A DNA stretch of 64,000 nucleotides from Antedon mediterranea (Eukaryota; Animalia; Echinodermata), in contig NC_092678.1 of assembly GCF_964355755.1 (NCBI RefSeq), positions 20,229,365-20,293,364 of the forward strand, in the 5' to 3' direction. The position numbers and the translations under genes are program-made. Below, one piece after another: positions 6,106 through 64,000 of the stretch (position 1 is the first letter of the stretch; the number at the start of each line of letters is the position of its first letter). The notes under the pieces were generated by a model that had not been told where the DNA came from, made no database searches, and saw only the letters and a program-made list of their open reading frames with translations.

Positions 6106-6974
6106 TTCTTGGATTTCCAAGAAAAAAGAAGAAGAATAATAATTAAACATTTTAAATTAAAGTTAACACATTATTTCTTACGGATTTTTTTTTCCTAAGG
6201 AATAATAAATAATAATAAAGTATCATATTATGTATATATTATGCTGAATTATAAACATCATAGGCACGAAACAAAATTACCGACATCAACCTCGTCACTA
6301 TCATCATTAGCGACATAAACCTCGTCACTATCATCATTAAAGCCTGGTTTCCATAAAATCGCTACACGACAGAGATTCTATGGAAACACTGGAATTTATC
6401 GGCGGAGATCTAGTACGCGAGAGCGCTAAATATTTTTTGGTAGGCGCGGCCTACGCGTATACGATTCATCGCCGACAAAATCGGCAAAGTTGAACATGGT
6501 TGAACTTTGCCGATTTGACTGCGATGAATCGGAGAGCCTTCCCGATAGCGTCGGCGACATCTGCGAGTGTAGCGATTTTAATGGAAACGCTGTAACGATT
6601 TTAATGGAAACCATATTTTTAGTGACAGCATTTAATTATATTTTGGTACTTTAAAAGTTCCTGTGTCTGATTTAATATGAGGCTTAAATAGGCATTTATT
6701 TTTTTAATTGGTTTATACTTTCGGTATCTTTTATTCATCAAGTATATACATAAAACAATTCATGGCAGTATAAACTGAATTGCGAACTAAGTAGTTAAAT
6801 ACATTATACAAAATATACAGAATTAAACAAAATGAGCAAAATGAGGATTAATACAATAGTTAAGTCACGGTAAATATTATGTGTGTATTGTTTTGTTTGT
6901 GTTTTTCTGCCAAGAAAACAATTATCATTATATAGGCTCATTACGTATGAATGACTTAAATCGAATCTGAATCT

Positions 6975-7360
6975 ATTTGAACGAAGGCACACTGTAGAGT
7001 AGGCCTAATAGACAATATTTGAACGAAGGCCCACTGTAGAGTAGTAGGCCTAATAGACAATATTTGAACGAAGGCCCACTGTAGAGTAGGCCTAATAGAC
7101 AATATTTGAACGAAGGCCCACTGTAGAGTAGGCCTAATAGACAATATTTGAACGAAGGCCCACTGTAGAGTAGGCCTAATAGACAATATTTGAACGAAGG
7201 CCCACTGTAGAGTAGGCCTAATAGACAATATTTGAACGAAGGCCCACTGTAGAGTAGGCCTAATAGACAATGTTTGAACGAAGGCCCACTGTAGAGTAGG
7301 CCTAATAGACAATAATTTGAACGAAGGCCCACTGTAGAGTAGGCCTAATAGACAATATTT
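6975..7360. repeat. 42-bp minisatellite, about 9 copies
   Basis: Unit TATTTGAACGAAGGCCCACTGTAGAGTAGGCCTAATAGACAA. It explains the 14-aa repeat ORFs at 6956-7332. Confidence 0.95.
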
Positions 7361-10719: not shown

Positions 10720-13700
10720 ATGGCATTGTCTTATTGCACTATTATATTTATATTTATCCAATCATCAATAATTATAGTCAATTCAAGTCCAGTTGTTCAA
10801 ATTAAGGTAGGTGTATAAAACCCACTATGACTCTAGGCCTAGCCTAGGCCTAGGCCTAGTAGCCTAGGCCTAGCCCTAGGCCTACTACACTACTACTACT
10901 CAGTCTAGGCCTACCTTACCTACTAATAAGTAGCTAGCTAGGCGTGGCTAGCGTACTGGAACGGAGTACAGTACAGTGTAACTGTAGGCTATAGGCTCAA
11001 GTTAGTGGCTAAAAAGGCCTAGCTAGCTAGGACTAGGTAGCTACCTACAGTAGGCCCCTAGATAGTAGTACTGTACTAGGTATGTGGGACTGAGTTGACT
11101 GTCGGTGTCACCAAGTTTGATATTGTTGTGATTTTAGGTCGGTGCTGGAATGGCCTGATAATGAAAGCTACTAGGCTTACCTTAGCAGTCCCGCTTGTCC
11201 TAAATCACACAAGTATCCGAAAGCAGTAAATCCAAATATCTTGGTCAATTCCGGTTGTGTCCGTTTCTCCTTGGTTCCTGCTTCGAATAGATCGGTTCGG
11301 CCGGCGTCGAGGCCTCACGTTAACATTTGCATACCCCCTGTATGCAAATCAAGGTATCGGGGCGACGCCCTCGTTCGGTCGGAGGGGTGGTCTGTTTACC
11401 CAGCGGGCGCCGTTCACAACACTCCTCCCGTGTTTGAAAAGCGGGCACCCCGTCCTGGGTCCACCTCGGGGGTAAACCAGGTGATTTTCGTACGTGAAAA
11501 AATACCCGATACCCGTAGCTATGTAGACTGCTCCCAACGATCTCTTCAGATAGTCAATGGCCGTGGGACATGCCGGTAGCACCGTCCCCTGCTTCCGTCA
11601 GCAAACGGCACCTGGTCCCTGTCTGAGAGAGAAGAGAAAATAAACGCGAGTACCTAATTGTTAACCGAGGACTTGCAGTCCGCACATCGATATAAGTCGA
11701 TGTCCAAGGCCTCAGATGGTGCAATATTCACACATGCACCATGGTACCACACCTCGCAATAATCACATTGTATCATAAATAAGCCGGCCCAGGGCTGGCG
11801 ACATAGACAATACAACGGTCCTGCATCCGGATCTGTAGGTGAAGAGAGAGGGGGTAAATGAAAATCAGCCAGCCATTTGGGAAGTTGTCGATCCCGACAG
11901 GGCTTCAGCTTATCATGATTTAACACCACCATCTTATTTCTCAGCTGCACCTGAAATAAACAAGAACTAATAACGTTAGTAATAATACCGGGCCCCTTCC
12001 AGGGGGGACACAATTTCTTGCACTTCCCCCGAGGGGTAGCGTTGTCAAGAACGTAGACCTTGTCCCCGCATTGGTATGGACGTTCCAGCACTCGAAGATC
12101 ATAGTCCCGTTTCATTCTCTTCTGAGTCTGCTTTAGCGTATCCCTAGCGATGCCATGGGCATCACGGGTCGCTTTCACCAAATCTGCAACGTAGATAGCG
12201 GCTTCCTGCTCATCAGTGGACCGGCATTCTCCGAACATGAGATCAGCTGGTAAATTAACCTCTCGGCCCAGCATCAGCATGTTTGGAGTAAAACCAGTCG
12301 AGCGGTTCACCGTGGCGCGTAGTGCACCAGCAATCTGCGGGAGATAGACATCCCAGTCTCGTTGTCTCTTCCCAACGAAGCATCGTACAGCATCCATAAG
12401 TGTTCGATTAAATCGCTCTACTTGACCATTAGCCGACGGTCGGTAGCTTGTCGTCCGGGTCTTGTGGATCTGTAAAACTTTACACAAAGATGCAAACAAT
12501 TCACTCTCAAAATTTCTCCCCTGGTCTGAGTGTAACTGAAAAGGTACACCGAATCTAGAGAAGAAGTCCCTTACTAGGGCTCTAGCGGTTACCTCCGCAA
12601 CCTGAGACGGGAGCGGGCTGATCTCAACCCATTTTGTGAATTGGTCGACCATCATAAGAACGTAAATATTCCCCTGTTCAGTTTTTGGTAACGGGCCGAG
12701 GAAATCGATATGTACGCGTTCCATGGGAACGCCGGCCTGGAATTCAGTCAACCGATGTCGACCTTGCCGAGTAGCCTTCTTGCTTCTATTACAAATATTG
12801 CAAGTCTGTACATACCTCTGTATATCCCCGCCCATACCGTACCAGAAAAACTTCTCCTTCAATCGGAACTTGGTCCGGGCGACCCCTTGATGACCCGCCG
12901 ACGGCAAATCATGATGTAACCTAAAAGCTACGGCGTGTAGCTCCTTGGGCAACACAAGTAGTCGTCCGGTACCCTCTGCTCGGTTGATGAACAGTATACC
13001 TGCTTCCGTGAGATGCAAGCGTTGCCTGTTCAGCCAGTAGTGTTTGGTGGCAGCGCTGGAGATAAACAGCTGATTCTCGGAGGGTTCCCCATTCCGCAAC
13101 CAGTCCAGAACAGGTGCCAAGTCAGGATCACTCGTTTGATGTTGCCGTAGCTCATCTAGTGAGTAACCCCAACACTCGGCTCCCTTCGGCCGTAGCTGTA
13201 CTGCAGCCACTCGTCCACCATCATCGTCCTGTAGGAAAGAAAACTGAATCGTACCGTTAGTAGCAGTCCGTGATACCTCTATACTTACTTGTCCACCGGG
13301 GTCCCAAGGAACATCGTCCCCTGGCAGAGTACCCTCCAGGTGGTCCACGGCTACCTGGTGTACGTGCGCGATGGGCACAACGTCGTCCACTTCATCCTGG
13401 AACGCTGACCATCTCGCATCCGCTCGTTGACAGTACGAACAGCCCCCACAGGGAAGCCCTTCAAGCGCAGGCCGTTCGTGGCTACTGTTATGAGTTTCGG
13501 GTCGGCGAGACAGAGCATCAGCGTTGCCATGGTGTTGCCCTCGGCGGTGTTCAATCAACAGGTGGTACTGGCTCAACTCCTCGATCCACCGAGCGAGTTG
13601 CCCCTGTGGCTGCTTGAAGTTGAGGAGCCAGGTCAGGCTGTTGTGATCAGTCCGCACTCTAAAAGGTCTGCCCAGAAGGTAGTGCCTAAAATGCCTTGTC

Positions 13701-16700
13701 ATGAACACAATTGCTAGCAACTCCTTGCGTGTAGTGCAATAGTTCCGTTGTTCATGAGTTAGACGAGCACTTGCGTATGCAATTACCTTCTCCTTACCTT
13801 CCTGCACCTGGAGCAGCTCGCCTCCTAGCGCTTGATCCGAAGCGTCGACATCCAGAATAAATTCATCAGTCCCGTTCGGCAAGGCGAGTAGAGGAGGTTT
13901 AACGAGAGCAGCTTTCAGGTCGGTGAACGCTTGTTGTTGTTCCTCATCCCAGTGAAACTTCACCTCTTTTTTAGTGAGTTCATATAGAGGTGCAGCTAAA
14001 CCAGCAAAGTTCTCAATGAACTCTCTATGGTAATTAGCCAACCCCAAGAACTGCTGTACTTCTCTCAGATTGGTAGGTGTCGGCCAGTCTTGAACAGCCT
14101 TTATATCCGAATCGGACACTGCCACCGTATCCTCCCCAACGATTCGCCCTAAAAATTCAACCTGTTTCTGAAAGAAAACACACTTTTTAGGTTTAAGTTT
14201 AAAGTTGTTAACACGAAATCGCTGCAGAACCTGAGAGAGGTTGCTGAGATGATCTTCAAACGTTTTACCTAGCACGACAATATCATCGAGAAATGCCAAT
14301 ACCGTATCCCACGCCAATCCCCGCAGCACCAAACCCATGGCACGGGAGAAGGTTGCAGGACAATTGGTAAGACCAAATGGCATTTTCACGAATTCATACA
14401 GGCCATGCTTGGTGATAAACGCTGTCTTCTTACGGTCTTCATCCTTCATCTTAATCTGCCAGTACCCCCAAATCGCGTCCAGTTTAGAAAACCAGATATT
14501 CCCCGACAGTGTGTCAAGGCAATCACGAATCAGAGGTAATGGATACGCATCTTTAGTCGTGATGTTGTTGAGAGCTCGATAGTCAATGCAAAAGCGCACA
14601 GAACCATCACGCTTCCGGACCAACACAGGCGGTGACGCCCATTCAGACATGGATGGTTGAATAACACCAGCCTCCAACATCTTCTTTATCTCCTTTTCCT
14701 CCTCCCCCACAAAGCGCAGAGGAGTATGGCGGAGCCGTTGCCTGATCGGTGAGGCATCTCCAGTGTCGATGCTGTGTTCAATATCACCAAAGGTGCCAAT
14801 GTCGAACTGATGAGCGGCGAAGACATCCTGGTAATCAACCAATAGTTTAGTGAGCGCGTCAGCCTCTTCACCTGAGAGATTAGATCTCGAAGAGTCCAAC
14901 ATGCCCACTAGGTGCGCCGGCACCCCCTCGGGTTGGTTACCGTCATCGTCCGCTTGATTCGACAAAGCATCCTCGGACGGAGTCACCCCCGTCTGGAACA
15001 CACTCACCCCTTCAGCTTCCCTGGCCGTACCTATCTGTCTACCCTTTTTCATAGTAAGATAGTGATCAGATGTGTTGATGACACAGATGCATGGCGCATC
15101 AGTGCGTAGATGTAAAGTTGCCGGTATCGCCACATCGTCAGTAGTTGGAACTGGCTCTATAAAGAAATCAGGCATAGATACATTGTTAGTCACAAGTTTA
15201 CATTTAACATGAGCGGCTGAGTGAGGAGGAATTACTCTCCGTTTAGCCACCGTTACCTGGGCAACCCTAGGTTCCACCGGTGAATCCCCTCTTAGAGATA
15301 TGGTACTGCCCCCAATTGCCAAAAGCAAATTTCCACAATCGATAACGGCTCCCTGTGGATGAAGAAAATCACCACCCAAGAGCATATCGTCATTGATGGG
15401 GGCAACATAAAAGAATTCATGGTACTCTTTGGTTCCCAATGTAAATTGTAGCGGCCCCACCTTCGACCCTGGCATAGATGTCCCCCTCCCTGCCAAAGTA
15501 AAGGACAGGGTGGACACCACAGGTGGTGCCGGATCTAGACTTTTATAAACCTTATCGGATAGTATGGTAAAATCCGCTGCAGTATCCACGACTGCGTCAA
15601 TTTTGGTACCATTGACAAAAGCAGTTGCATGCAACGCATTCAATGATTTTACCCTATTGATAACAATCCGGGTTTGAGTCTCTTCAGTTTTGGTTGTCGT
15701 CGGTGTAGATGATTCAATCAGCCCTGAGCTAATTGCAGACGGCTCAATGATCGTCACAGGATCCGGCGCTACCCCCTCTGTATTTACAGGCTTGGCCATC
15801 GGGCCTAGCTTGGGGATAGTCGACGAATCATCCTCTTTCTGGCCAGCTTCTGGAACCGGGTTAGGTCGTCGGCCCTCTGACCCAACCCTTACTCGTTTAA
15901 CGGATCCGGCTCATTGCCACTAACCTGACGCAAACGGCTCGCTAATCTCGGACACTCCCTGCGGAAGTGTCCCACCTCCTTACATTCAAAACAAGCCAGT
16001 TCGCCTGGTTTCAGGAAACGCATGAGCTGATCCAATTGATTCCGCATGGCGGCAATCCCCGTGTTCACGGTGTTCTCCACCCGTCCCAGATTGGTATTCA
16101 ACGTCTGGAAATTACCCTCCACAGTAGCCAAACGGGCTTCTGTAGTAGGAGTATTGTTGGTGGGTGGCACCGACGTCACAGTTCGAGGCTGGTTCTGGCC
16201 GTCAGTAGGTGCGGGTTCCGGAGGAACCCAAGCTGGTGCTGGCCTTTGAAACGTTACACGGTTTCCCCTCATAGGCCTCCCTCGCACCTGCTGAATGGAC
16301 ACCTCATCGCCAGTTTCACCCTCGGTATCGTCCTGGTCTTCTGAAGGTAGCTGAAAAGATAGTGGGGGTGCAAAAGAAGTACGGACCGTGGACCTAACAT
16401 GAGGTTTCACGGTATCCTTAACCTTACTCTTACGTTTACTATATAACCCCCTATAACTATCATATTTTTCAAACTCCCTAATAGCTCTGGGAATAGTTGA
16501 ACAGTGCTTGTGCATGACATGCCTACCTACTTCCGCATCCCTGCACCCAATGCAAAACCTAACTACGGCCTGCTCTTGGATCCACTCCTTGGGTAAATCC
16601 TTAAACGCCTTTCTAGTCAAGGTTAGCACTCTATCTCCCCATTCCTCTATAGTCTCTCCCTCATTTTGCGTAGCAGTCTCTAATTTAGCTTGGAGGACTG

Positions 16701-19700
16701 CGGGGAGCTCGTCCTCACTAAAACGTCGGTTGAAAGCTTTACTGATCTGCCTAAAGCCCAAATCAGCGTCCATTTCTATCAGATTCACATAGAACTCAGC
16801 CGCCGCCCCGTCTAAACACCAAGTAAGGACGTCCTTACTTTCACGGTTTGTGAGTTCCTGCTCCTCTATAAATGAAGCCAACCGCCGCTTAAAAAAGGAC
16901 CAGTTGTCTCCCCTCCCCCTAAACGTTAGAGACCTAGGTATATCTTTTTTACGCATCCTCCTACGTTCTAAAAAACCCTGCCGGCCTTCATAGTGCCTGA
17001 TTCTTGGGGTAGCCCTAAGACACTCCACTGCTGTCCTAGCCCCTGCACTATGTCTATCCGACTGTCTATCCGACTCTCTACTCCTGCTACTATCAGTATC
17101 AGCACCATCCCCACTAAGGTCACTATCGCTGGCTGATGGAGATCGCCGGCGAGCCCTAGTTTTAGACCTAGCGGTTTTAGATAGTCTCCTGGGGAGTCTT
17201 TCCTCCTCGTCCTCCCTAGAGCTAAAACACGAGTCTAAGGTTATCGGAGATGGCTTTTTGATGTAGCTCCTACGTTGTGTTGACCTATTCTTACTCCTAT
17301 CCTGGTCAGAACGGCCAGCGAAGGTGGATGGCGTATAAGCCCCAAGCCCACCTTCGAGATAACGAGGAACACTAACAGGTCCTGTAGTATAATACGTACC
17401 TGGTACGTCTAATAAAGGAGTAGCCTGGGGCGATGAGAGGACGTGGTATCGACCACTATGGCCCCCGTCATTTTTCCCCCGATATGCCCCTTCCATACCT
17501 ACAGATTGTGAGACCTGCGACCCCTTTCTGGCCGCTCTATTTTGCTTCTCCACTAGAGGTGACACATTATCAATCATCTGGCCTACGCCTCCCCCTAAAC
17601 TCGGATTCGGCTGAAAATCCAGGTAGTCCACCAACCTGGCAGTACCAGCTACTCCGTGTATCTGATTAATATTAGAGGGCGTAATGTTGCCATGGGTAGC
17701 CCGCCATTTAATTATTCTAGTTGCTCGTTTCTTCCCTACATTAGGGACTCCATGAAGATCTTGCACTGGGCAAAAGTTAACTAGAACCTTATTAGACGAC
17801 ATGATCTAAAAATCGTCTCTCTTCTATTGGGTTGTTATGCTCCTTAATCTAGTTACAGTGTATGGCAGATGTTATTAAGCAAAGAGTACGATACAAATTA
17901 AAATACCGCCAGACGTAATAAAAATTACAGGCCCAACAGTAGAATAAAATATCGTCAATGCAGTAACACACACACAATATTGCAAAATGGTTGTTGGAGA
18001 TGCAAATATAATAAAATATTTCACCAGCAAACCTGCAATGAGAAACAACTAGATTATTCAAAAAGACGTCAATACAGTTTAACAACACTTACCACTAAAC
18101 CTTCCCCCGATGCAAAGAAAGGAGAGCGATAATGCCACTGTGAGGTTAACACAATAATACGCACAGCCAATATAATTTCTCAAGATGAAAAACCTGACTG
18201 ACGGACGAAAAAGATGTTATCAATAAAAAACAATCAAATTTAAAATTAGTGGTGCCACTCAGTTCAACGGCCACGCCTAGTACCCTACCAGGTGATACGG
18301 CCTAATAAACTGTCCACTAATCCTTCAACTATAGCAAAATAAATACAACTCCCGGTACGCATCGACTACCCCGTCGATACGCTAATCAGCAAGTATCCAA
18401 ATGCCACAATACTGCGTGATTAACTTTACCGGTATGTTGTAATCTTCAATAAATATACCAACTTCAATAAACTAACAAATGCACCGTAAGTAAGTTAATA
18501 GTTTCAGCAGAGGACGAAATACCTCGCAATCAACCCGATCACGTTAAGAATGCCAGCTGGCAATCAAGGCACCCGCCTCCCCACCAAAAAAAAAGATTTC
18601 CGAGCTTTTGCTCGCAGCGCCAATGTTGTGATTTTAGGTCGGTGCTGGAATGGCCTGATAATGAAAGCTACTAGGCTTACCTTAGCAGTCCCGCTTGTCC
18701 TAAATCACACAAGTATCCGAAAGCAGTAAATCCAAATATCTTGGTCAATTCCGGTTGTGTCCGTTTCTCCTTGGTTCCTGCTTCGAATAGATCGGTTCGG
18801 CCGGCGTCGAGGCCTCACGTTAACATTTGCATACCCCCTGTATGCAAATCAAGGTATCGGGGCGACGCCCTCGTTCGGTCGGAGGGGTGGTCTGTTTACC
18901 CAGCGGGCGCCGTTCACAACAATATGGATGGACCATGGAGGTATACCTCCTTGTTGGATGGACCAAATTAACTATCTTCGATCTCTAGCTAGGCCTGGCT
19001 TTGTATTGTGAATTGTGTTGTTTGTAGCCTATCTACTGATATAAATTGTTCCTAATCTTTAATTTATTAACAGTCATAGTCATGCTAAATCTTCGCCCGG
19101 TATATACTGTAGGGCACTATTTAGTCTTATTCTAACCTTTTTATAGATATATTTTTCTTTTTTAAAATAAATTAAAATATTGTTAAACTTTTCATTCATC
19201 GCATCAACAACAAAACATAACAAAATACAAAATCATTATTTTCACATTTTTTTATTCAAAAAGTTTATAAAATACAATTAAAATAATTAAATGTCACAAT
19301 AACATTAAATATTATGTTAGCATATAATTGTACTTAATAACATTTTATATCATATACCGGGCAATACAGGGCAAGAATTAGCATGACCCAATTAATTAAA
19401 ATATTTATATTAAATTAAACCTACCTAGGGCCTTATTTATAGGTAATTATCATCATTAGATTAGATATTACAGTAATTTGCTGTTTTGGGTAGAACATAG
19501 AAATATTATAGTTTTCTATGAGTATACTATAACTAATAATACAAACGACTCATATGATGTACAATGATGTATACTGTAATCAACCAATCAAAGGGTGAAA
19601 ATTCAATGCTTGGTATCTTTGGTTTAATTGGCAGAAATGACATTACAAATACAAATTACACTATAAAAACCAGGGAGTTGTAAAATAACCAGGGAGTTGT

Positions 19701-43400: not shown

Positions 43401-46400
43401 GTGACAGCCAAAAGCTGAAATAAAGTATCTTTTAACAATTAAAAATTGGATAAATAAACAGCAATAGTATTCTGGCGCTTACTAAATACTAAAAACAATA
43501 TAAAAAACTCAACAATGACATTCACTAATACAAAAATATCAATATCTATGTAAAATATCATTATCATACAATATTCACATTATCACAATTTATGAATTAA
43601 AAATGGGTAACATTATTATTGTATTCATATTATCATTGTTATTTTAAAAATCAATTCTATAAGTCTATATTGCATTCATTTCATTTCTTAGCTATATTTT
43701 ATGGTCGCATTTGGTTTGTTAATAATAATTAATAAAACTTTATTTAATCACGGTAACACTTGTTCACCTCAATGGTGTTTTTCGACAAGGCTGTAAAACA
43801 TTATACACAAATCAAATTTAACAATTAAACAATTAACAGCAAGAGTTTATCTTTAATGATTTACACTTAAATTAGAATGACTTAGAATTTAACAATAGAT
43901 TGTAAAAGCCAATTTTACAAAAGAATAAACATCAAAATGAACAGAGCATATTTTTACTTAAATAATTAAACTTAATACTAAAGATATTAAATAAATTATT
44001 AATAAGAATTTAACTATAAAAAAACTGTTTTGAACCTCCAGCGCAGTGGGAGGAGAAAACGGAGGGAATGCCAGGGTTAGTAACACCATTGATAATCAAC
44101 CCTGTCATTCAAAAGACGGGTGAGATAAGGTATTGGACTGTTAAAATAAGGTATTGGACTGTTAAAATAACGTGTTGTTTTGCATTTATATTCCTGATAA
44201 TTGCTTTCTGAACGCCACTGCGCTGGAGGCCCGCTTAAAAAAATTTTCAAACATGGTTGTTTTTTTTTACATTAGACACAAACGATCGATCATGGTACGG
44301 TGGAACAACACTAGTTCTGTAGAGAGATCAAATTGAAAAGACCTCACATTTCAATTCATCAATTCATGAATATAATAAAACCACCAAGTACAATTGTTAA
44401 GATGCCCTTATGTTCTTTTTTATAAGATAATATGGTTACACTTTTACATTCCTAATTTAATTAATTGTTTTGTCTCAACAGATGGAACATTCTCTTCAGG
44501 TGAAGTTGGAGGAATCTGTCAGAATTGTCACCATTGTCTCCATGGCGAAAACAAGATTGAAGAGTGTACTCGTGAAAAAGACACGGTTTGTGAATGTCCA
44601 TATGGTAAATATATTACTAGCTCTCGCGTATGCTTATCGTGTGAAAAATGCGGTGAAGAGGACTGTAAAAAAGTGTGTAATGTAACGACAACACCAAAAC
44701 CGCCAGCACGAACAACAACGCAAAAAACAACAATACCTGGTAAGTTTCAATTTATCATAAACTCATGATCTATCCGATTTAAGCAAAACATCTTTGGTTT
44801 TTTTTAAATATTTTTCTGCTATTTAATGTTTATATTTCGTTGTTTCTTTATTTATTATTCCTTATTTGTCCTTTTTTACAGCCGAAACCACAGAACATCC
44901 TACCGACCCAGAGAAGAAGAGTTCTCCGTGGAAAAATATATACCTTCTGCCGATTCTATGTAATAAACTTAATATAGTTTCTGATAATTTCACATGTAGA
45001 ATAATAACTACTAGTTTACTGTAGTGTTACTTAAATAACTACACATTTTTTTATTTTTTTTTTAACCAATCTCTTTGTCTATGTGTACATACAGACACAA
45101 TATAAAAACAAAAATCTAGTTAAATTACTCCATAAAATTTACTGCAGAACTTCACATTTTTCTTGCAGAAGTCCTAACTCCTTGTAACTGTATGAAATCA
45201 TCTTTTTAGTTATCCGCATTGAGCGGATAACTCCTTGTAACTGTCCTGTTTCATCATCTTTTTTTTTTTTTTCTGTATTCTTCTTTCTTTCTGTCTTTTT
45301 TGTGTCTCGCGTAACTCAAAAACGTGTAAACATAACATTTCATAACTTTGTCAACATGTGGGCATTTACGTGAAATTGTGCACCTCCTATTTTTGAATGA
45401 CGTCAGAGTTGCGCAACATGACTTACGCGCGTTTTTCCGAATTTCGCGTATTTAACATAGATCGAAAACCATATAACAATTTAATATGAAACTTGACAAA
45501 AGTTTAAGTTATATCTTGCGCTAACTGACTATGGGGAAAAAATGGCATGTTTCACACGAAGTTACGCGCGCACGCGTGTTTAAAATTTCAAAATGCGAAA
45601 AATCAATTTCTAATCAACTTTCTACGCGTTTCATGTAATTTTAAGCATGTACAAAATTCCCACGCGCGCGCCTTTTTTTACGCGCATGGTGCGAACGTAG
45701 CGTTGAAAACACTTTTTTTTGTGTGATTTATGTTTTTTCAGCCTTTTCTAGTAATTTTACCAACTTTTAAACAATTTCGATTTAAAATTACGTCATACGG
45801 GCACGTTGAATTGAATAATTTACGTGCGTTTTTTATGAAAAAGTTAAAAAATTTGTCAAAATTCGTCAAAATTATGCCTTTTTTTAAACAGTCTAAACAA
45901 CGAGGTGAAATTTTTTTAAATTACAAATTCTTGAAGTTGATGAGTTGTAGATATGGGATCATGAATCAATATGGCTAACCGGACATTGTGACGTCATCAT
46001 ATGGCCACACGAATGAAAAATATAGGATTTTTGTCTCTTTCGTTATTGCTCATCATATTCAATGGAGCGCATCACGCCTATCTGTATTCCTTTTTCTCCG
46101 AGATTTTAATATTGTCTAGGTCAATCAACTATCTTTCGCATGAGTTAAAAATATTTTAATTTTTATGACGTCATCATGCCTAAAAATTATAATTAACAGG
46201 GTTATTAATTTCATCTTTACAGTAAATTTTAATCTGTTATAGCTCGTAAGAATAAAAAGTGATAATTATGATAAAAACGTTTTCTGGAAGCTATTGGACT
46301 GTAGATACGAATTAATGTGAACATTTTGCCAATCGGATGTTGTGAAGTCATCCTATGGCCAGTTGAATAAAAAAAGTCGTATTTTCATATTTTGCGTCAT

Positions 46401-49400
46401 GGTTCATCATATTTAATCGAGCACGCATCCATATTCTACGTATTCAAATTTCTTATACACGTTAATATGTTGTTGGTGAGATAATGTCCTTCCGAAATTG
46501 CTATCTTAGTGTTTAATTTTAATACCATGTTAAAAATTGGAATAAACGGTGGGTCCCGTAATTTCACCTATTCTACACTGTATGTAATATGTATACAGAT
46601 TATACTGCATATACTATATGACACAAAATAGACAGAATTCAGCACTAACAAGATATGATATTCTTCAGTTCAGGTCATAATGCCATAATCTTTTTCTGTG
46701 TGCAATATTCCAACGTATGACGTGCACGTGGCGTTTGTCGTGCGGATAACTAACTCGTCAAAGTGACGAGTTTCATGTCTAGTTTTTTTTTTTTTCTGTA
46801 TTATTGTGTCTCGCGTATCTCAAAAACTTGTAAACAAAACATTTTATAACTTTGTCAACATGTGGGCATTCACGTGAAATTGTGCACCTCCTATTGTGAA
46901 TGACGTCAGAATTGCGCAACGTGATTTACGCGCGTTTTAACGAATTTCGCGTATTTAACATAGATCGAAAACCATATAGCAATTTAAATTGAAACTTAAC
47001 AAAAGTTTAATTTATATCTTGCGCTAACTGACTGTGGAAAAAAAATGGCATGTTTCACAAGAAGTTACGCGCGCACGGGCGTTTAAAATTTCAAAATGCG
47101 AAAAATCAATTTCTAATCAACTTTCTACGCGTTTCATGTCATTTTGAGCATGTCAAAAATTCCCACGCGCGTGCATATTTTTACTCGAACGGTGCGCACG
47201 TAGCGTTGAAAATAAATTGTTTTCGCGTGATTCATGTTTTTCCAGCCTTTTCTGGTAATTTTACCAACTTTTGAACAATTTTGACCTAAAATTACGTCAT
47301 ACGGGCACATCCAATTGGATAATTTACGTGCGTTTTTGATGAAAAAGTTCAAAAATGTGTCAAAATTCGTCAAAATTATGCCTTTTTTTAAACATTCATA
47401 GATTCTAAACTACGAGGTGAACTTTTTTTAAATTATATATTCTGGAAGTTGATGAGTTGTAGATATGGAATCATGCATTAATATAGCTAATCGGACATTA
47501 TAACGTCATCGTATGGCCACGCGAATATAAAATATAGGATCTTTATATCTTTCGTCATAGCGCATCACATTTAATAGAGCGCATCTCCACTTATCCGTTT
47601 TTTATTTTCACCCCGATTTTGATATTGTCTAGGTGAATGAACTATCTTTCGCATGAGTTAAAAATATTTTAATTTTTATGACGTCATCATGTCGAAAATT
47701 GTAAATAACGTGGGTCACTTATTTTCATCTTTACAGTAAATTTCAATCTGTTATAGCTCATCAGAATAAAAAGTGATAATCATGATTAAAACGTTTTCTG
47801 GAAGCTATTGAATTGTAGATATGAAATCATGTAAACATTTTGCCAATCGGATGTTGTGACGTCATCATATGGCCAGTTGAATAAAAAAAATTGTATTTTC
47901 ATATTTTGCGTAATAGTTCATCACATTTAAAAGGGTGCGCATCTATATTTTACGTATTCAAATTTCTTCTACACGTTAATATGTTGTTCCTAAGATAATT
48001 TCCTTCTGAAATTGCTATCTATGTGTTTCATTTTGATACCGTCGCCATGTTAAAAATTGGAATAAATGGCGGGTCCCGTAATTTCACCTATTCTACACTG
48101 TATGTAATATGTATGCAGATTATACTGTAGTGTTTGCATGTATACTATATGACACAAAATTGACAGAATTCAGCACTAACAGCATATTATATTCTTCAGT
48201 TCTTGTCATAATGCCAAAATATTTATCTGTGTGCAATATTCCAACGTATGACGTGCACGTGGCGTTTGTCGTGGTGCGGATAACTAACTCGTCAAAGTGA
48301 CGAGTTTCATGTCTAGTTATAATTTATTTGGAACAACAGCACTCTACAGAGAACTTAATTAAAATAAAATACACCTTCAATATTTATAGAAATATCAAGT
48401 ACAGGTGCAAGAACATACATTGTTTTTTGGTTCCAAACATCAATTGCAATCGACAGAATTTGCTCAAGCATTGCCAATTCCTTCAGTCTAATATTCTGGA
48501 GGTCAGGTCATGAGGAAAGGATCTTCAGTAGTAGAATTATATAGGTTACATAAGCTGTCTTTATTGTTATCATCCGACCAGCTTAATATACATTGTAATG
48601 TATTGGACTGCAATTTTAATTTTAAACTTGCACTTTCGAACCCTATACATTGTGGTGCAACTATGTTCTTCTCCTGACATGCATAAACAGTGATACTTAT
48701 TGTGGTCTATGGTACTTGATAATCAAGAGAATTCAGTGTATTTTAAACTTTCTTATATTTTTAGTATTTTTACTCATCATCGGCATAATCGTTCTTTGTT
48801 GCAAGTTTAATGAGAAGTTTCGGAAATTTTTGGAAAATCTCTTTCCTGGCTATTCCTTTGGTAAGCTGTTTTTTCTATTACTTTAAAAAAAAGATTATAT
48901 GAAGAATTTTCCCCATCATTCTCTTTGCTCCAACCCATACACGGAAGATAAATGCAAGCAATGCGTCTACAATAAGCACTGCTCTTTTCCAATAGTGTAC
49001 CAAGTTTTTTATTGTACATGGTAGACCAACGGCTTAACAACAACCTGAAGGATGAGGCAATAAGGGAACTGTACCTTTTCACATGCCAGTCCAATTCATG
49101 AATACACCATTGTGATTTTTGGCCACTTCCCCTCTCGCTAGAGATTTAAAGGATTATCTTTGTATCATGCCGACGTTTTTATCTGTGTTTATTATTACAA
49201 TTGTATAGTAATGAAATAAATAAAATATAATTCTGTTAACAAACTCAACATTTTTCTTACCTGCAATCAAAAAGCCTAGCTGAAAAAATTATTTATTTTG
49301 TTATATGTTTTTTGGAAAACTGAAGTGTTAATTTTTTTCTTTTAGGCATAATACATAAAAAATTTGCAGAGGGTGATAATAAAATCCAGGATGAGAAATC

Positions 49401-52400: not shown

Positions 52401-54734
52401 GGTTTCCAAGACGACGTTCCTCGACCTCCAGCCTTCCTGATGTACCAGAAAACCGTCAATTATCAGTGGTTCTACGAAAATGGTGCTATCGTAAGAATTA
52501 AGATCATTCAATATTCTTCTGATTTGCGTTCTTTAAAAAATTAAACATAATGTGTTTTAACTTCTATGAATGATTGCTTAAAACACTTTTTTGTTTTCAT
52601 ATAGTGTACCTATACTTTGTTTTTATGGTATACAGTAATGCCTAAATAGATTTCTGTCATTTGATGATAAAAAATAAGCACCCTATTTTTGTCGGCGGAA
52701 GATAAATAAAAAAATAAAATAATAGATCCTTAAATTTTATGGCCTGTCACTTTCACTTTCATTTTTAATTACTCTTTTTATTTTATTTATTTCTTGGATT
52801 ACTTTTTTTATGTGAAGCGCATTTATGACATTAAAAGTCCAAATTTATTATTATTATTGAATAAAAACAGATATTTTATATTCATAGAGGATAGGGCAAG
52901 AGTTGAACCGGAACATGTTTCTGAAATCTCAAAACACATTGGGAAAGAAGTAGCAAGGATTGGTTTCATGCTTGGCTTAACAAATGGGGAAGTGGAAACT
53001 ATTGAGCATAACCACAAGTCAGATCTTTCTAGACAGAATTTAGTAGTTTTGCAGATATGGTTGGAAAAGAGAGGTGTTTCTGCTACGAAAAGTGTTCTTG
53101 CACGTGCTCTTAACAGTATTGGAAGACCCGAACTTGCATTAAAACATTTATGGACTGACCAAGAATGGAAACAAGGTAATTCCTTTAGTTCGAATGTTTG
53201 TTTTCATGAAAAAGATGTATATTTAAAGCCATGACCATAGAGATAATATTGAATAACTAGACAGTCAACTCTAACACAATCACATCTCTTTTTAACATGG
53301 AGAGGAACCATCAAAATATTGCAGTATCGCATTAGCTGTGCCGTGCCTACTACTTGGCCATTCACCACTATATCTCTGTTGTAGTATGTTAACTGTATCA
53401 AATGTATTCTTAATAGTTAATTTTATAAAAAGTGTACTGTATTTAAAACAAATATGTTGCCATTTCGGGGAGTCCTTGCCCTGTCAAATTACTAATTGTC
53501 TCTTAGGTAACTCTTGAGTAGATTAGTATATATCTCTAAATAGCCATGACAGATTTTTTTTTTTTTCGACTGTCAGAATATTTAAGTTTTTTTTATATGT
53601 TCACCTATATTTAACATTAATTTAATTTAGGGATGCAAGCAGTCAATAAAGAATCAACGTTTTGGAAAAGAAGAAAAAGTCGGGAATTGGTGATCAAACT
53701 TGATTCTGGTTAGTACTTGTTCAACTTCATTGACCAATTATAATTTTCAAGCCCTACTCCTCCAAACCTACAGTACTGTACCTTTCTATAAAACTTTATA
53801 TAAGAAATTGTAATCAGACCTAAGCCATATTAAAATTGACCATTCTACTGTATTCTCTCCAGTGTCTGTCTGTAAGTTTTTAGGTTTTTTAAGTCTTTTA
53901 GTGTGTTAATTTTAGATGGACAGATAAATTACAATCTGTTTTTTATTTCTTTATTTAAAATTGTATTTTATAGATTATTTTGATGGCAAGGATTGGGAAA
54001 TGCAAAGCACATGGCAAGGTATCTGGGAAATTATGTTAGAAAATGACTTTGGGAATTTCAGACAACTCAAATTAGCTTGCGGTGCCGTAGAATTACAACA
54101 GCCACCCCTTGAAGGTGCAGAAAGCTGTCCATATTTTAAGGGGAATCTTTGCTTGGATCAAAATGCTGAACAATTGATTGATTCAGAGTTTATACATCTG
54201 AAGCCAGTTTGTGTATCAGATGGCGTTAACTGTTTATTCTCTGCTGCATCTGTTATCTACTATGGTTCAGAAGATAATTTTCTTGAGTTAAAACTACGTA
54301 CAGTTATTGAGTTGGCCTATCATAAAGATCACTATATGAGACAAAAAGCACTTATCAAGTGTATAAAAGCGGAGTACGCACTGACCAAGTTAGAAGAGAA
54401 TGATGTATTAACCAAACCTAAAGATGTAGAAGCAAACTTTGAAAATTCTATCCGGCAAACATTAAGTGAACAAAACCTCTTCAGCCTGCAGGGAAACTCC
54501 ATCCAGCTGTTCGGCCTTGCATCAGTTTTAAACTGCAATATTCAGTCCGTCTTTCCTACGATGGGTGCATCGGAAACAAGCCCTTTGAATGTACTTATCA
54601 CTCCACGTAAGGAACAAGAAAATCCAGCAACAGTTTTCATTATGTGGTCTAGGCACACACCATTACCTGAAGATGGACAGTTTGTTCCTAATCACTTTGT
54701 CCCTCTTCTTCAAGAACCACCAACCATAAATTAG
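40442..54734 (+). CDS. Gene B: paralogous TNFR death receptor with C-terminal vertnin-like OTU domain (12 coding exons, ~700 aa)
   Basis: GT-AG, frame-consistent exons: 40442-40525 (signal MELSHFTIPIIFVFIQYSIILA), 42798-42906 and 44482-44739 (Cys-rich), 44882-44959, 48765-48860 (TM), 49346-49426, 50208-50249, 51852-51896, 52308-52490, 52888-53175 (death domain), 53631-53708 and 53974-54734 (OTU-like). The last three exons match gene A in length (288, 78, 761 nt). Confidence 0.87.
44482..44739 (+). CDS. Gene B exon 3: TNFR cysteine-rich repeats
   Basis: DGTFSSGEVGGICQNCHHCLHGENKIEECTREKDTVCECPYGKYITSSRVCLSCEKCGEEDCKKVC, inside ORF 44394-44768. Confidence 0.9.
45203..48316 (+). mobile_element. 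Head-to-tail dimer of a ~1.55-kb Helentron/DINE-like non-autonomous element
   Basis: 5' subterminal TTAGTTATCCGCA with adjacent inverted GCGGATAACT and a T/C-rich tract. Both units end TGCGGATAACTAA-CTCGTC aaagt GACGAG-TTTCATGTCTAG|TT (46782 and 48316). Confidence 0.8.
50574..51381. mobile_element. MITE with imperfect TIRs
   Basis: AGACTTATACGCTCGTATTCCTAAACC ... GGTTTAAGAAGACGGGCGATAGAGTCT. Confidence 0.55.
52027..52105. repeat. Purine-rich tandem repeat, about 3 copies
   Basis: GAGAGGATTGGGGGAGGTA repeated. Confidence 0.85.
52888..53175 (+). CDS. Gene B death-domain exon
   Basis: HVSEISKHIGKEVARIGFMLGLTNGEVETIEHNHKSDLSRQNLVVLQIWLEKRGVSATKSVLARALNSIGRPELA. Confidence 0.88.
53974..54734 (+). 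CDS. Gene B last exon: vertnin-like OTU domain
   Basis: PVCVSDGVNCLFSAAS....GSE....ELKLRTVIEL...IMWS...PNHFVPL. Confidence 0.88.
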
Positions 54735-57462: not shown

Positions 57463-59043
57463 TAGTCATAGTCATAGTCATATATACTTTATTGTCCATT
57501 TAAAAAACAGAAATGTGATTTGAAAACTGGCAAAATACAAAAATATAAAATACAATTTACAAGAACACACACAAAAAGTTAAGAGGCTAAAAATTGTTAA
57601 AATTAGATAAAAATTATCGGTTACATTTTACCTTTGTACTCTGGAGTTATATAAGTGTATAGCATTAGGTACAAACGAGCACCTAAACCGTTTTGTTTTG
57701 GTATTAAGTGCACGTAGTCTTATGCCAGAATTCATGAGAGCAAATTGTTTGTGAAGAGGATGTGTTTCATCATCAATGATACTTTTTACTTTTTTTAACA
57801 CATTTTCTTTATACAAGGATTCAACATCAGGTAAGTGCTCTCCTACTAGTCTAATTGCTCTATTTCCTATTCGATTAAGTTTAATTTTATCTTTTTGCAT
57901 TGTATTACCATAAAAACAAACATTACAAAAAAGTATTACACTGAGAATTACAGAGTTATAAAACAATTTAAGTATAGTTTTGTCAATTTGTAGGTACTTC
58001 ATTTTTCTTAAAATAAACATCCTTTGGTTGGCTTTGCATGTGGCTTTATTTACATTATTTATCCAATTTAGCTTATTGTCAATTATACAACCCAGATATT
58101 TGTACTCATTTACTACTTCAATCTCATTTTCATTTATAATCAGAGGTTCTAAGGGTTCTTTAATTTTCCTAAAATCAATTTGCATTTCTTTTGTTTTCTT
58201 TATGTTTAGTTTCAGGTTGTTATTGCAGAACCAGTGATAAAAATCACATCCTAGTTGTCTATAGCTTGTTTCATCATTGCCAGTAATGTATCCAGTGATG
58301 ACTGTGTCATCTGCATATTTTACTATACAACATTCATTTGAATTGGCTCTGAAACTGCTGGTGAACAGTGAAAACAACATTGGGGAGATAACAGACCCTT
58401 GTGGCGTGCCAATGCTAACAGTTCTTTTATCAGATAAAATACCGTTTAGTTTAACATACTGGAACCTTTTTGTTAAGAAATTATATATCCATGAAGTCAA
58501 TGTGTCGTTTACGTTCATTTCTTTAAGTTTGCGTACTAATGAACCAGGTTCAACGGTATTAAAAGCACTAGAAAAATCTATATACAAACATCTTACATAT
58601 GATTTAGGCACATCTAAATGTTGGTAAATATTATGTAAGTGGAAGAGCACAGCATCTTCAACACTTCTATTACTCTGATAGGCAAATTGGAGAGGATCGA
58701 GAAACAATTTGGTCTGATCAAGCAACTGCCTAAGTACAATCTTTTCTAGGCACTTACCAACATTGGATGTGATAGCTATTGGCCTATAGTCATTAAGTTC
58801 CTTGGGATTTTTTATCTTAGGAATAGGTGAGATACAGGCCGTTTTCCATTGATTGGGCACTGTACCACTTGCTAAACTCTCATTAAAAAGTTTGGTATAT
58901 ATCGGTGCCAACTCTTGGTTGCAGTATTTAATAACACGATTTCCAATTCCATCAGGGCCAGTACTTTTACCAGGCTTTACTTTGGCGAATACATTACGCA
59001 CATCAACTACATTTATGACTGCATTGTTTACTAATGAAGTCTC
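57463..59043 (-). mobile_element. 5'-truncated Rex1/Babar-type LINE
   Basis: RT ORF, then a 3' UTR with AATAAA and an (ATGACT)3 tail. The insertion interrupts sequence that is contiguous in the gene A 3' region (~35284). Confidence 0.9.
57628..59001 (-). CDS. Reverse transcriptase domain of the truncated LINE
   Basis: KSTGPDGI, LNDYRPIA, DPLQFAY, DFSSAFNT, GTPQGS, KYADD, and a C-terminal TKRFRCSFVPNAI motif typical of Rex1/Babar. The endonuclease is missing. Confidence 0.92.
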   Translation of the reverse strand: MRNVFAKVKPGKSTGPDGIGNRVIKYCNQELAPIYTKLFNESLASGTVPNQWKTACISPIPKIKNPKELNDYRPIAITSNVGKCLEKIVLRQLLDQTKLFLDPLQFAYQSNRSVEDAVLFHLHNIYQHLDVPKSYVRCLYIDFSSAFNTVEPGSLVRKLKEMNVNDTLTSWIYNFLTKRFQYVKLNGILSDKRTVSIGTPQGSVISPMLFSLFTSSFRANSNECCIVKYADDTVITGYITGNDETSYRQLGCDFYHWFCNNNLKLNIKKTKEMQIDFRKIKEPLEPLIINENEIEVVNEYKYLGCIIDNKLNWINNVNKATCKANQRMFILRKMKYLQIDKTILKLFYNSVILSVILFCNVCFYGNTMQKDKIKLNRIGNRAIRLVGEHLPDVESLYKENVLKKVKSIIDDETHPLHKQFALMNSGIRLRALNTKTKRFRCSFVPNAIHLYNSRVQR

Positions 59044-59101
59044 ATTTTATTTGAACATATTATGAAATAATAGAATGTCTTATATCAAAAGTAAAAAATA
59101 A

Positions 59102-60650
59102 CTAGATTTGAACTCGTCACTTTGACGAGTTCGGGTTATCCGCGCAAACGCAACATGCACATACTTTAAACTATATGAACCTCGACAATTATTATGCCAT
59201 CCTATGACATGAAATAAACGTGTTTACAGTGCTGAATTGTACCTATTTTGTAGCATACAGCATAGTACAGTGTTTACAGAATACACTGTATGTTATATAC
59301 AGTGTAGCATAGACGAAATTACGAGACCCATCTTTTAAATCCAATTATTAACACGATGACGTCATCAAATTGACATATAAAAATAACAATTTTAGAAGAT
59401 AATTATCTAAATAATTACATTAAAACAAATTTGAAGAATTTTGGGAACGTAAAAGTGAGATGCGCTCTCGTTTAAACGCAATGAACTTTTACCCAAGAGA
59501 TGAAAATATGACTTTTTGAATTCAACTGGCCATATGATGACATCACAACATCTGATTGGCAAAATATTCACATCAATTCGTATCTACAATCCAATATCTT
59601 CCAGAAAACGTTTTAATAATGATTATCACTTTTTAATCTGACGAGCTATAACAGATTGAAATTTACTGTAAAGATGAAAATAAGTGACCCAAGTTATTTA
59701 CGTTTTTAGACATGATGACGTCATAAAAATTAAAATATTTTTAATTCATGCGAAAGATAGTTGATTGACGTAGACAATATTACAATTGCGGGGGGAAATG
59801 GAATACGTATAAGCGAGATGCGCTTTGTTGAATGTGATGAGCAATAACGAAAGAGTAAAAAATCCTATATTTTATATTCGGGTGGCCATACGATGACGTC
59901 ACAATATCCGGTTAGCCATATCAATGCCTGATTTGAGAAATAAAACTCATCTACTTCCAGAATATGTAATTTAAAAAAAGTTCACCATGTAGTTTAGAAT
60001 TTATGACTGTTTAAAAAAAGGTCTAATTTTGACGAATTTTTAAAGTTTTTCATCAAAAACGCGCGCAAATTATCCAATTCTACGTGCTCGTGTGACGTGA
60101 TTTTAAGTCGAAATTGATTGAAAATTGATAAATTTACTAGAAAAGGCTGAAAAAACAAAAATCAAGCAAAAAAAAGATGTTTTTGCGCTACGTGCGCACG
60201 CGCGCGTACAAAATTTGCGCACGCGTGGGAAATTTTGAAATGCTCAAAATGACATGAAACGCGTAGAAAGTTGATTAGAAATGAATTTTGCGCATTTTGA
60301 AATTTTGAACGCGCGTGCGCGCGTAACTTTATGTACAACATGCCATTTTTAATCCATAGAAAGTTTGCGCATGATATGACTTAAATTTTTACCAAGTTTC
60401 AATACAAAATGACTATTGGTTTTTAATCTATGATCAATCATTGAAATTCATAAAATCGCGCGTAACTTACGCTGCGCAACTCCGAAATCGCCGAAAAGCT
60501 TGGCTGCACATCTACAGTTATAGGTCAACCTTATGACAAAGTTATACAATCTTATGTTGGCCAGAAGATAGAGATATGCTGCGAACAAAATTCGGCTCTT
60601 TCGTCAAATTTATACAAATTTCAAAGAGTGCGCAGTGCGCTCCTAGATAA
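59102..60650 (-). mobile_element. Third, more divergent Helentron/DINE-like copy
   Basis: Reverse complement of the 45203-48316 units, with CTAG, the CTCGTC/GACGAG hairpin and GTTATCCGC at 59102-59143. The far end is approximate. Confidence 0.75.
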
Positions 60651-61749: not shown

Positions 61750-61948
61750 TCAGGGCTAGGCCTAGTAGGCTAGCCTAGGCCTATAGTCAGAATAAATTGC
61801 GCGCCGCCTGGCGATTTCAATTAAAAATTTCACAAACACAACCACAACAGGCTTACAAAGTTTATCCGTGACAGATCATACAAAACTAGGCCTATGTTGT
61901 AAAACAAATTGTATTTGTACCCTCCCTCCAACTATGCTGCTATGCTAT

Positions 61949-64000
61949 TGTTGTGAAAGGGGTCTCGCGCTTGAATACCCGGTCCAGTTTGCTCATTTGC
62001 ATGTAAATCAGCTGGTTGAAATGCATGGTTGACCCCACCAGGATAGGCTAGTTAGCTCACTTGATGTCTGGACCCCATGTAGGAAACATGCTTGATGCAT
62101 AAGAGTACCCTGTACTATAAACAGTATTTACCCTAGAGTGGTACTGGACATTGAGTCTCTGTAGTGGTTTAGGTACTGCGGGACTGAATAAGGTGAGTGT
62201 ATTTGCTTGCTTTAGTAGGCCATTTCAGTGCTAGCCTAAAATCACAACATTGGCGCTGCGAGCAAAAGCTCGGAAATCTTTTTTTTTGGTGGGGAGGCGG
62301 GTGCCTTGATTGCCAGCTGGCATTCTTAACGTGATCGGGTTGATTGCGAGGTATTTCGTCCTCTGCTGAAACTATTAACTTATTGTACTTACGGTGCATT
62401 TGTTAGTTTATTGAAGTCGATATCTTTATTGAAGATTACAACATACCGGTAAAGTTAATCACGCAGTATTGTGGCATTTGGATACTTGCTGATTAGCGTA
62501 TCGACGGGGTAGTCGATGCGTACCGGGAGTTGTATTTATTTTGCTGTAGTTGAAGGATTAGTGGGCAGTTTACTAGGCCGTATCACCTGGTGGGATACTA
62601 GGCGTGGCCGTTGAACTGAGTGGCACCACTAATTTTAACTTTGATTATATACTGGCTGTGCGTAATATATTGTGTTAACTTCACAGTGGCATTACCGCTT
62701 TCCTTTCTTTGCATCGGGGGAAGGTTTAGTGGTAAGTGTTGTTAAACTGTATCGACGTCTTTTTAATAATCTAGTTGCTTGTTATTGCAGGTTTGCTGGT
62801 GCAATATTTTAACTGTATTTGTATCGCCAGCTGCCATTTTGCAATATTTGTGTGCGGGTTATTGCATTGAAGATATTTTATTATACTGGTGTGCTTGTAT
62901 TTATTACTACGTCTATCAGTATTTTAATCCATATTGTATTCTATGCTAAATAACATCTGTTATCTCACACTGCAGCTAGTTTTACCACACTGAAGATCGT
63001 AAAGTGTTACTACAACTTTTATTCCGGGCCAGTCTGTTTTCTTCTGGAAAGCTTGAAGACTGTTCACGTGATTTGTGACTTCAACTTCACACGCTGATTA
63101 TCACTGCCTTTCTGTGGAGGGGAGTGGTCTGGTGATCAGTGTTCGTTGAGCATTACCAAGATCTGGATTTGAAGTATCGTCATCATTTGAATGCTGTGCA
63201 ATTGGTGAATGTATCACAAATGTTTTAATAGTTTTATGTCCATTTTAATAGTACAGGCATTGGTATTTTATGGCATTTTACATTCCTAGTTTATACACAG
63301 TATTCATCTTAAACCGGATAAGTACTAGTGGCAGAACATACATTTAGATACATTTTAATGAAAGTCTTTGACCTCTGGCAATACTTTTATATCGTATGTT
63401 TTAAAGGATGCCTCATGTTGCAATAAATTTCTGGACAGAGCCGGAGCTCGTCCATCTACTAGGAAAGAGAGCTAGGAAAATTACTGATTGGAGGTCCAAA
63501 TTTGGAAATATTAGAGCCTGTGACTTAGAATATTTAACTGGAATCAAGTGCTTGTCATCCAAAACGACTCGCTGGGATTTCACACCGAATCCTCAATTAG
63601 TGAGTAGTTGGGTTCAGAACACTAGCACTCCTCAGTTGTTCCATGCAGCACAAGTTCCATTTGGAACTTATTCTGGTGATTTACCTGGTGGTAGTTTCTC
63701 ATGGAGACACACCAGTACCAACCAACCTAGTTCTGACCACAGAGAAAAGACGGATTCAGGTTGTAGGAATACTCACTATAGGTATGCAACCAAAGCAGAA
63801 TGTCAACCAATATCTGAACTGTTAGCTTTAGACTCTAGTCTTAATGTACGGGGTCACCATTGCACTAAAGGTAGTAAAACCTCAAAAACTAGATCTGTGT
63901 CTAAGCTTTGTAGATTACTGACAGAGGATTGTTTCAGTGACTCTTCTAGTAGCTCTAGTCTTATGGACTCCAGCTCTAGTAATGATGAGAGTTGTACAAG
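61949..64000 (+). mobile_element. Second Ty3/Gypsy element (5' part; runs off the window)
   Basis: A 301-bp LTR TGTTGTGAA...CCTAAAATCACAACA (61949-62249), the same PBS TGGCGCTGCGAGC, a leader near-identical to element 1, and a gag-like ORF from 63408. Confidence 0.9.
63408..64000 (+). CDS. gag: N-terminus of a divergent HhH-Gag (open to window end, missing from the ORF track)
   Basis: Hand translation MPHVAINFWTEPELVHLLGKRARKITDWRSKFGNIRACDLEYLTGIK...WDFTPNPQL has no stop for 197 codons. It aligns with element-1 Gag at NF, GK.RA..I..WR...GNI and DF.PNP.L, then enters a Ser-rich linker. Confidence 0.85.
   Translation, partial: MPHVAINFWTEPELVHLLGKRARKITDWRSKFGNIRACDLEYLTGIKCLSSKTTRWDFTPNPQLVSSWVQNTSTPQLFHAAQVPFGTYSGDLPGGSFSWRHTSTNQPSSDHREKTDSGCRNTHYRYATKAECQPISELLALDSSLNVRGHHCTKGSKTSKTRSVSKLCRLLTEDCFSDSSSSSSLMDSSSSNDESCT

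Follow-up and report, generated by a model that had tools for sequence, protein, structure and literature searches.

Retrotransposon partners such as mouse ETn/MusD and yeast Ty1/Ty2 share priming, packaging or integration signals through recombination, and LTR swapping within an autonomous/non-autonomous pair of soybean was reportedly described by Du et al. in 2010. The soybean, mouse and yeast pairs share or swap their LTRs. In contrast, the two Gypsy-type elements examined here, E1 and E2, which lie in one 64,000-nucleotide stretch of DNA (the window), share the leader and not the U3 region of the LTR. Recombination between Gypsy families or subfamilies has been reported for Athila, where exchange between distant families made mosaic lineages and many non-autonomous families keep intact ORFs (PMC2410132), and for the grass CR/CRM elements, where LTR, UTR and polyprotein parts of different subfamilies are combined in mosaics for which co-packaging and template switching were proposed (PMC4079200). 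The Gag-only TR-GAG elements (PMC4350172) and the modular, non-autonomous LTR families of sugar beet (PMC13570524), plant elements that are Gag-only or non-coding, are considered to depend on autonomous partners, and modules are reshuffled across families; a further paper (PMC2836005) concerns DNA transposons.

The locus differs from each of these Gypsy cases. The four events described in the accessible part of the Athila report exchange portions of gag, pol or env (PMC2410132), whereas E1 and E2 share just a primer-binding site (PBS) plus the non-coding leader, which sits between different LTRs and different gag genes. In the text available for CR/CRM, the recombining parents have 71 to 89% DNA identity and the UTRs are more divergent than the coding sequence (PMC4079200), whereas E1 and E2 have no DNA similarity in gag and share a leader in spite of their distant Gags. 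Their Gag distance exceeds that in the recombinants compared here. TR-GAG elements consist of gag without pol and the TR-GAG1 leader has no significant structure in the part of that report consulted (PMC4350172); E2 is seen here by its 5' part alone, and the E1/E2 leader is predicted to be strongly folded. A literature search by title and start of abstract, with subscription journals and Repbase outside its coverage, gave no description of leader-only sharing or of a clade with helix-hairpin-helix (HhH) Gag and PHD finger. Inter-family recombination is already known, and exchanging nothing but the leader between elements with Gags this distant is one variant of that process. Because the process is known, the finding is only moderately surprising, unless E2 turns out to be without pol.

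Table 1. Features of the E1 and E2 elements in window coordinates (X5 and X7, public sequencing runs).
Feature	Position	Strand	Remarks
E1, whole element	11124-18921	-	intact Ty3/Gypsy LTR retrotransposon
E1 3' LTR, 298 nt, then ATAT target-site duplication	11124..11421	-	self-BLAST, flank letters
E1 polypurine tract	11422..11432	-	purine run adjoining 3' LTR
E1 pol (1418-codon frame with protease, RT, RNase H, integrase and, at its C-terminus, a PHD finger)	11654..15910	-	
E1 gag: N-terminal helix-hairpin-helix, capsid, CCHC knuckle	15889..17802	-	domain search
E1 leader	17803..18623	-	PBS 18605-18622; predicted acceptor AG ending 18033
E1 5' LTR, ATAT ahead	18624..18921	-	predicted splice donor GT at 18680
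CTAT, candidate 4-nt E2 target site	61945..61948	+	one copy in window, second would lie beyond
E2, Gypsy-type	61949 to window end	+	5' part within window
E2 5' LTR, 301 nt	61949..62249	+	predicted splice donor GT at 62193
Shared block, step 1	62250..62417	+	no substitution relative to E1; one 5-nt indel
Contents of step 1		+	PBS 62251-62268, T10 run, G-rich motif 62288-62295, 10-nt palindrome 62312-62321
Shared block, step 2	62418..62777	+	16 substitutions; 55-nt deletion relative to E1
Older homology, step 3	62778..62982	+	37 substitutions/205 nt; predicted acceptor AG 62789-62790
E2-specific leader, without E1 counterpart	62983..63407	+	joined to step 3 and ORF in X5 and X7 contigs
E2 Gag-like ORF	63408..64000	+	open to window end; HhH-like N-terminus, then Ser/Thr-rich

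The direct LTRs of E1, which begin with TG and end with CA, were identical in the self-BLAST of the window (298/298) and are flanked by ATAT on both sides. The gag gene is followed by protease, RT, RNase H and integrase in that order, and the gag and pol frames are both open. A purine tract is present, and the PBS, which we take to correspond to tRNA-Ser, starts with TGG 1 nt past the LTR. The HHH_3 match of E1 gag sits under the cut-off of Pfam. Among the 21 related loci, the nearest showed 39 to 70% identity to E1 in the best segment, and a protein search with E1 Gag matched none of 7994 candidates.

E2 showed a 5' LTR, a PBS and a Gag-like ORF, the likeness to Gag residing in the HhH-like N-terminus alone, and its leader measured 1158 nt between the LTR and the ORF. 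The first 198 codons of the ORF lie within the window, where 197 open codons would arise by chance with a probability of 3e-6; this part gave no Pfam match and no capsid domain. Protein searches with the ORF matched 0/234 and 0/26 candidates, with no full-length relative found there. A search against 1.84 billion representatives gave three matches, all in multiple stretches, and the two inspected were unrelated repetitive proteins; the Atlas search gave no usable match.

In the self-BLAST of the window, 17846-18708 and 62982-62164 aligned as an inverted match with 83.5% identity (874 columns, E=0). The initial annotation had described 62250-62646 as the reverse complement of about 18233-18623 with scattered differences, followed by similarity that passes an indel of about 55 bp and fades by about 62980, and the alignment confirmed this description. 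Identity was 162/162 over 62250-62416, outside the 5-nt indel, 221/230 over 62417-62646, 133/143 over 62647-62791 and 152/186 (approximately 82%) over 62792-62982, and nothing aligned beyond 62982. The 55-nt segment falls between 62646 and 62647 and is present in E1 only, and an exact run of 146 nt spans 62235-62380. The identity profile along the leader, proposed earlier as a check, fell in steps. One change point was placed at about 62417, a step reached by 10/1000 permutations, and the other at about 62777, reached by 0/500. The step at 62417 is the weaker one, and part of it may reflect private changes of the window copies. These change points, together with a 5' edge at the U5/PBS border, delimit segments of discordant similarity, as in a recombinant.

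Outside the leader, the two elements were much less alike, as had been noted before for the LTRs and the Gag N-termini. In the LTRs (298 and 301 nt), the first 9 nt and the last 15 nt are exact matches and 76 nt on the U5 side are about 75% identical; the remainder requires numerous gaps to be aligned, and there is no alignment in U3. Over a 76-aa stretch, the E2 ORF and E1 Gag were 33% identical (E=1e-7). In a seven-sequence alignment it was 32% identical to E1 and 26 to 44% identical to five elements of other sources; thus, by its HhH domain, E2 is not closer to E1 than to these five.

The 21 loci related to E1, five of them with leader sequence, were used as a control set. Only 1 of 10 pairs of the relatives' leaders gave a match, 70% over 131 nt, and the integrase DNA of that pair was 77% identical. 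Leaders of this clade normally diverge faster than pol, and the shared leader of E1 and E2 is therefore an exception. None of the 21 loci (0/21) gave a DNA match to the E1/E2 leader and LTRs. The Gag N-terminal region is very variable within the clade, and the relatives carry Ser/Arg-rich, low-complexity linkers of hundreds of residues ahead of the capsid. The initial annotation had regarded a leader more conserved than Gag as the reverse of the normal pattern; part of the pattern is ordinary, given a predicted structured leader and a variable Gag N-terminus. Of the 10 stretches scanned from nine loci, a PBS was placed in four, those of L006, L007, L011 and L012, with none placed in L001 and L002. 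L006 and L007 also carry the G-rich 8-mer that follows the PBS, and the U3 terminus is nearly alike also in the unrelated L006.

The relatives had further features of their own. A third ORF after pol, of 700 to 815 codons with a TatD DNase domain at its end, was found in 4/4 relatives tested (E 1e-31 to 1e-37), at 2164-4284 in L003, 2051-4429 in L006, 8546-10990 in L007 and 4051-6315 in L011. E1 has no such ORF, and a search by title or abstract start gave no literature on TatD in retrotransposons. L011 (1-6604, with overlapping contig ends) contains an LTR, a PBS, an intact 699-aa gag, protease, the integrase tail with PHD finger and an intact TatD ORF. It has no RT, RNase H or integrase core, the protease directly adjoining the integrase tail, and represents either a natural pol-deleted derivative or an assembly collapse. 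L001 (943-4952) has an HhH-like start, a capsid match, integrase and a PHD finger, with no match for protease, RT or RNase H and with broken frames.

Contigs of public runs were compared with both elements, and 12 runs from five studies contained part of E2. X3 may be the source sample, and three other studies, on organisms A, B and C, supplied X5, X6/X7 and X9, respectively; contig depth is no copy number, and the figures below refer to pieces among those listed. The start of the ORF is joined to the homologous and E2-specific parts of the leader by X5 record 15 (62950-63442) and likewise by X7 records 20 and 21 (62890-63171 and 63173-63456). Among the contigs listed, none spans all of E2; one X5 contig runs about 2.1 kb beyond the window end. 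An X7 contig on the U5 end of E1 has a loose end at 18638 and continues as E2 U5, and in an X5 contig the start of LTR2 is preceded by a purine tract unlike that of E1. The E2 LTR also occurred in other forms. In a shorter one, seen in X3, X5 and X7, about 160 nt of 61965-62141 are replaced by about 35 other letters, loose contig ends at 62054 and 62219 indicate additional ones, and the 3' half of the E2 LTR is a minor form in the organism A runs.

In X3, a window-identical piece covering 62311-62417 had a depth of 4152, compared with 2228 for the E2 ORF and 3097 for the main E1-type downstream piece. In X5, one piece accounted for 76.8 of the 80.7 depth over 18461-18594 among the pieces listed, and one piece covering 18079-18404 had E2 letters at four sites, yet kept the 55-nt segment. 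Downstream, X5 showed three types with 0, 13 and 9 differences from E1, at depths of 67.7, 28.8 and 17.9, respectively. Judging from these contigs, many of the step-2 positions at which E1 and E2 differ appear to be private or polymorphic, and there are indications of a third downstream type besides E1 and E2. There are likewise indications that leader sharing is a feature of families, involving three or more types of downstream sequence together with several types of LTR, and not of one event between two copies.

The main form in organism B (X6 record 16; 1639 of 2188 depth in X7) carried nine substitutions and five gap letters over 18510-18639, about 7% plus indels, and the nine substitutions fall within a stretch of about 125 nt that is the same in E1 and E2. 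Another form in X7, at a depth of 413, is near that of organism A, and further forms are at least 10% different in the middle, one of them with 420 non-aligning nt. Because the identical tract blocks contig phasing of LTR, leader and gag, the at least four leader forms of organism B were assigned to families by depth. By this measure the minor forms could belong to E2-type elements, in which case swaps would have occurred in both directions. Should the change have taken place in the main form of organism B, the identity of E1 and E2 in organism A could have a greater age than proposed here. The exact PBS-leader pattern gave 0 matches in metagenome contigs.

Folding of the shared leader, which the initial annotation had suggested, gave a strong predicted structure with z scores of -3.7 to -5.2. 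For 62250-62790 the score was -5.16, and none of 100 shuffles was as good. With 20 shuffles each, the scores were -3.7 for E2, -4.2 for E1 and -5.6, -3.5 and -2.3 for three relatives, compared with -1.0 to -1.4 for three coding controls and -1.1 to +1.1 for four host controls. The downstream leader of E2 scored -2.2, the antisense strand of the block also folds well (-3.2), and 100-nt windows were weak (lowest z -2.9), placing the folding signal at the scale of the whole block. Of the listed organism B differences, with indels left out, 19/22 fit the predicted structure versus 14.3 expected (P ~0.014); between E1 and E2 the count was 15/17, which was not significant (P ~0.11). Rfam gave no match above threshold and one chance-level hit.

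The best donor-like site lies in U5, 58 nt ahead of the PBS, in both LTRs (62190-62198 and 18675-18683), as scored with an approximate matrix. In the four relatives with a placed PBS, the corresponding site lies 55, 59, 37 and 39 nt upstream (shuffle P of 0.0085, 0.015, 0.045 and 0.11, respectively). A leader intron is possibly present throughout the clade, judging from sequence motifs. Such a donor-like motif was observed 37 to 59 nt upstream of the PBS in 6/6 elements with a placed PBS. A top-ranked predicted acceptor, at 62790 in E2 and 18033 in E1, lies 13 nt past the main change point, so that the closely shared block nearly coincides with the predicted intron. In this model, splicing would leave the gag mRNA without the PBS and without the folded region; a second donor-like site at 62732 permits other splice patterns. 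X5 contigs, which may be DNA, cross the predicted acceptor unbroken, with no splice joint among those listed. Retroviral leaders have a packaging role, and by analogy the shared block is predicted to be a dimerisation and packaging region, its position between donor and acceptor fitting a packaging signal.

Taken together, two Gypsy families with distant Gags share a PBS-leader block that was likely exchanged recently, and probably repeatedly, by template switching among RNAs packaged together. According to PMC6894440, the PBS is where minus-strand synthesis ends, its copies are paired in second-strand transfer, and template switching during extension needs homology. In the course that we propose, reverse transcriptase on E2 RNA would switch to an E1-type RNA within the leader, the direction of transfer being either way, and the older leader homology of about 80% (the 82% step) would permit the switch. 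Minus-strand copying would then run on to the PBS and second-strand transfer would pair identical PBS copies. A single late switch would thereby give an element with an E2 LTR, a foreign PBS-near leader and an E2 gag, its 5' edge fixed at the PBS and its 3' edge marking the switch point. If switches recurred, the part next to the PBS would be homogenised more often than the rest and identity would fall in steps away from the PBS, which matches the steps observed; a shared packaging block would favour more co-packaging. Such switching needs a putative co-packaging of two RNAs with distant Gags. Structural constraint probably slows leader divergence, but alone it cannot give identity at positions where host organisms differ by about 7%. 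The recent recombination or leader exchange proposed in the initial annotation is thus supported by the PBS edge, the steps and the host-organism differences, but a single event between two copies is not, as sharing occurs at the level of families.

Exchange would be unnecessary if a leader from a common ancestor had been maintained by purifying selection for its RNA structure, with gag and U3 diverging in the meantime. The strong predicted folding of E1, E2 and three relatives and the organism B differences tolerated by the structure are consistent with such inheritance, which we nevertheless consider improbable: the segment is not the same in organisms A and B, leader identity among related families does not exceed 70%, step 1 is identical in its T10 run and predicted loops as well, and the structure test between E1 and E2 was not significant. 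Selection on structure alone was rejected, since host organisms differ where E1 and E2 are the same. Local gene conversion could be considered for neighbouring inverted copies 44 kb apart with a short shared tract. However, the shared leader form is the main one in other samples, and in the 5-nt indel, as well as at four sites in the middle part, X5 pieces match E2 and not the neighbouring E1; on these grounds gene conversion was rejected as very improbable. The initial annotation had itself raised an assembly chimera, or a nested element as the source of the ORF at 63408. An exact repeat of 146 nt can mis-join short-read assemblies, and E2 is covered by contigs in parts; yet X5 record 15 and X7 records 20 and 21 join leader parts and ORF, the X7 loose end reads as E2 U5, LTR2 in X5 follows its own purine tract, and E1 is self-consistent in its LTRs and target duplication. 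Because these contigs derive from independent studies and organisms, a chimera or a nested ORF is very unlikely.

Exchange by template switching is also compatible with a helper-parasite relationship, in which E2 lacks a working pol, retains its divergent Gag-like ORF, uses the enzymes of E1 and is selected to keep the PBS, packaging leader and integrase attachment ends of E1. This is a tenable reading to which we give somewhat less than even weight. The LTR ends are identical over 9 and 15 nt, the E2 ORF is lower in GC (41.5%, GC3 0.33) than E1 gag/pol (50%, GC3 0.47-0.50), its HhH hairpin is three residues short, and pol-deleted forms such as L011 and L001 occur in the clade. In addition, 5/6 B/C-specific differences in the E2 ORF are non-synonymous among 40 of 112 rows, but this is near the neutral share, and the U3 terminus is nearly alike in the unrelated L006 too. 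Moreover, the window view of E2 ends at 64000, ahead of any pol, and the ORF remains open over all 198 codons; considering also the long pre-capsid linkers of the relatives, an ordinary gag-pol may lie downstream.

Recombination by template switching would mean that one particle contains RNAs of two families whose Gag N-termini are approximately 32% identical. In an invertebrate Gypsy clade, a candidate packaging signal is delimited by the ends of the exchanged block, and families sorted by LTR, leader or gag alone would be mis-sorted here. A broader proposal, which we regard as doubtful, is that the block is a portable, intron-enclosed packaging cassette kept in step, by repeated switching in several hosts, within a guild of three or more families that differ in their LTRs and very strongly in their Gags, with E2 as a pol-less passenger on E1 particles that makes its own divergent Gag-like protein.

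Elsewhere in the window, duplicated pieces of host genes were found at 25746-26123, 44379-44768, 52734-53234, 53928-54734 and 31998-32777, comprising two TNF-receptor cysteine-rich exons, one death-domain exon and two OTU-like exons, which suggests a tandem TNFR-like cluster. A 471-codon RT frame at 57628-59046 on the minus strand, with no LTR match nearby in the self-BLAST, is likely a LINE fragment. A 1.5-kb repeat occurs in three copies (45278-48329 and 59089-60558), two in tandem at 88% and one inverted at 78%, and short tandem arrays lie at 6974-7360 and about 19668-19775, with units of about 84 to 87 nt and 21 nt, respectively.
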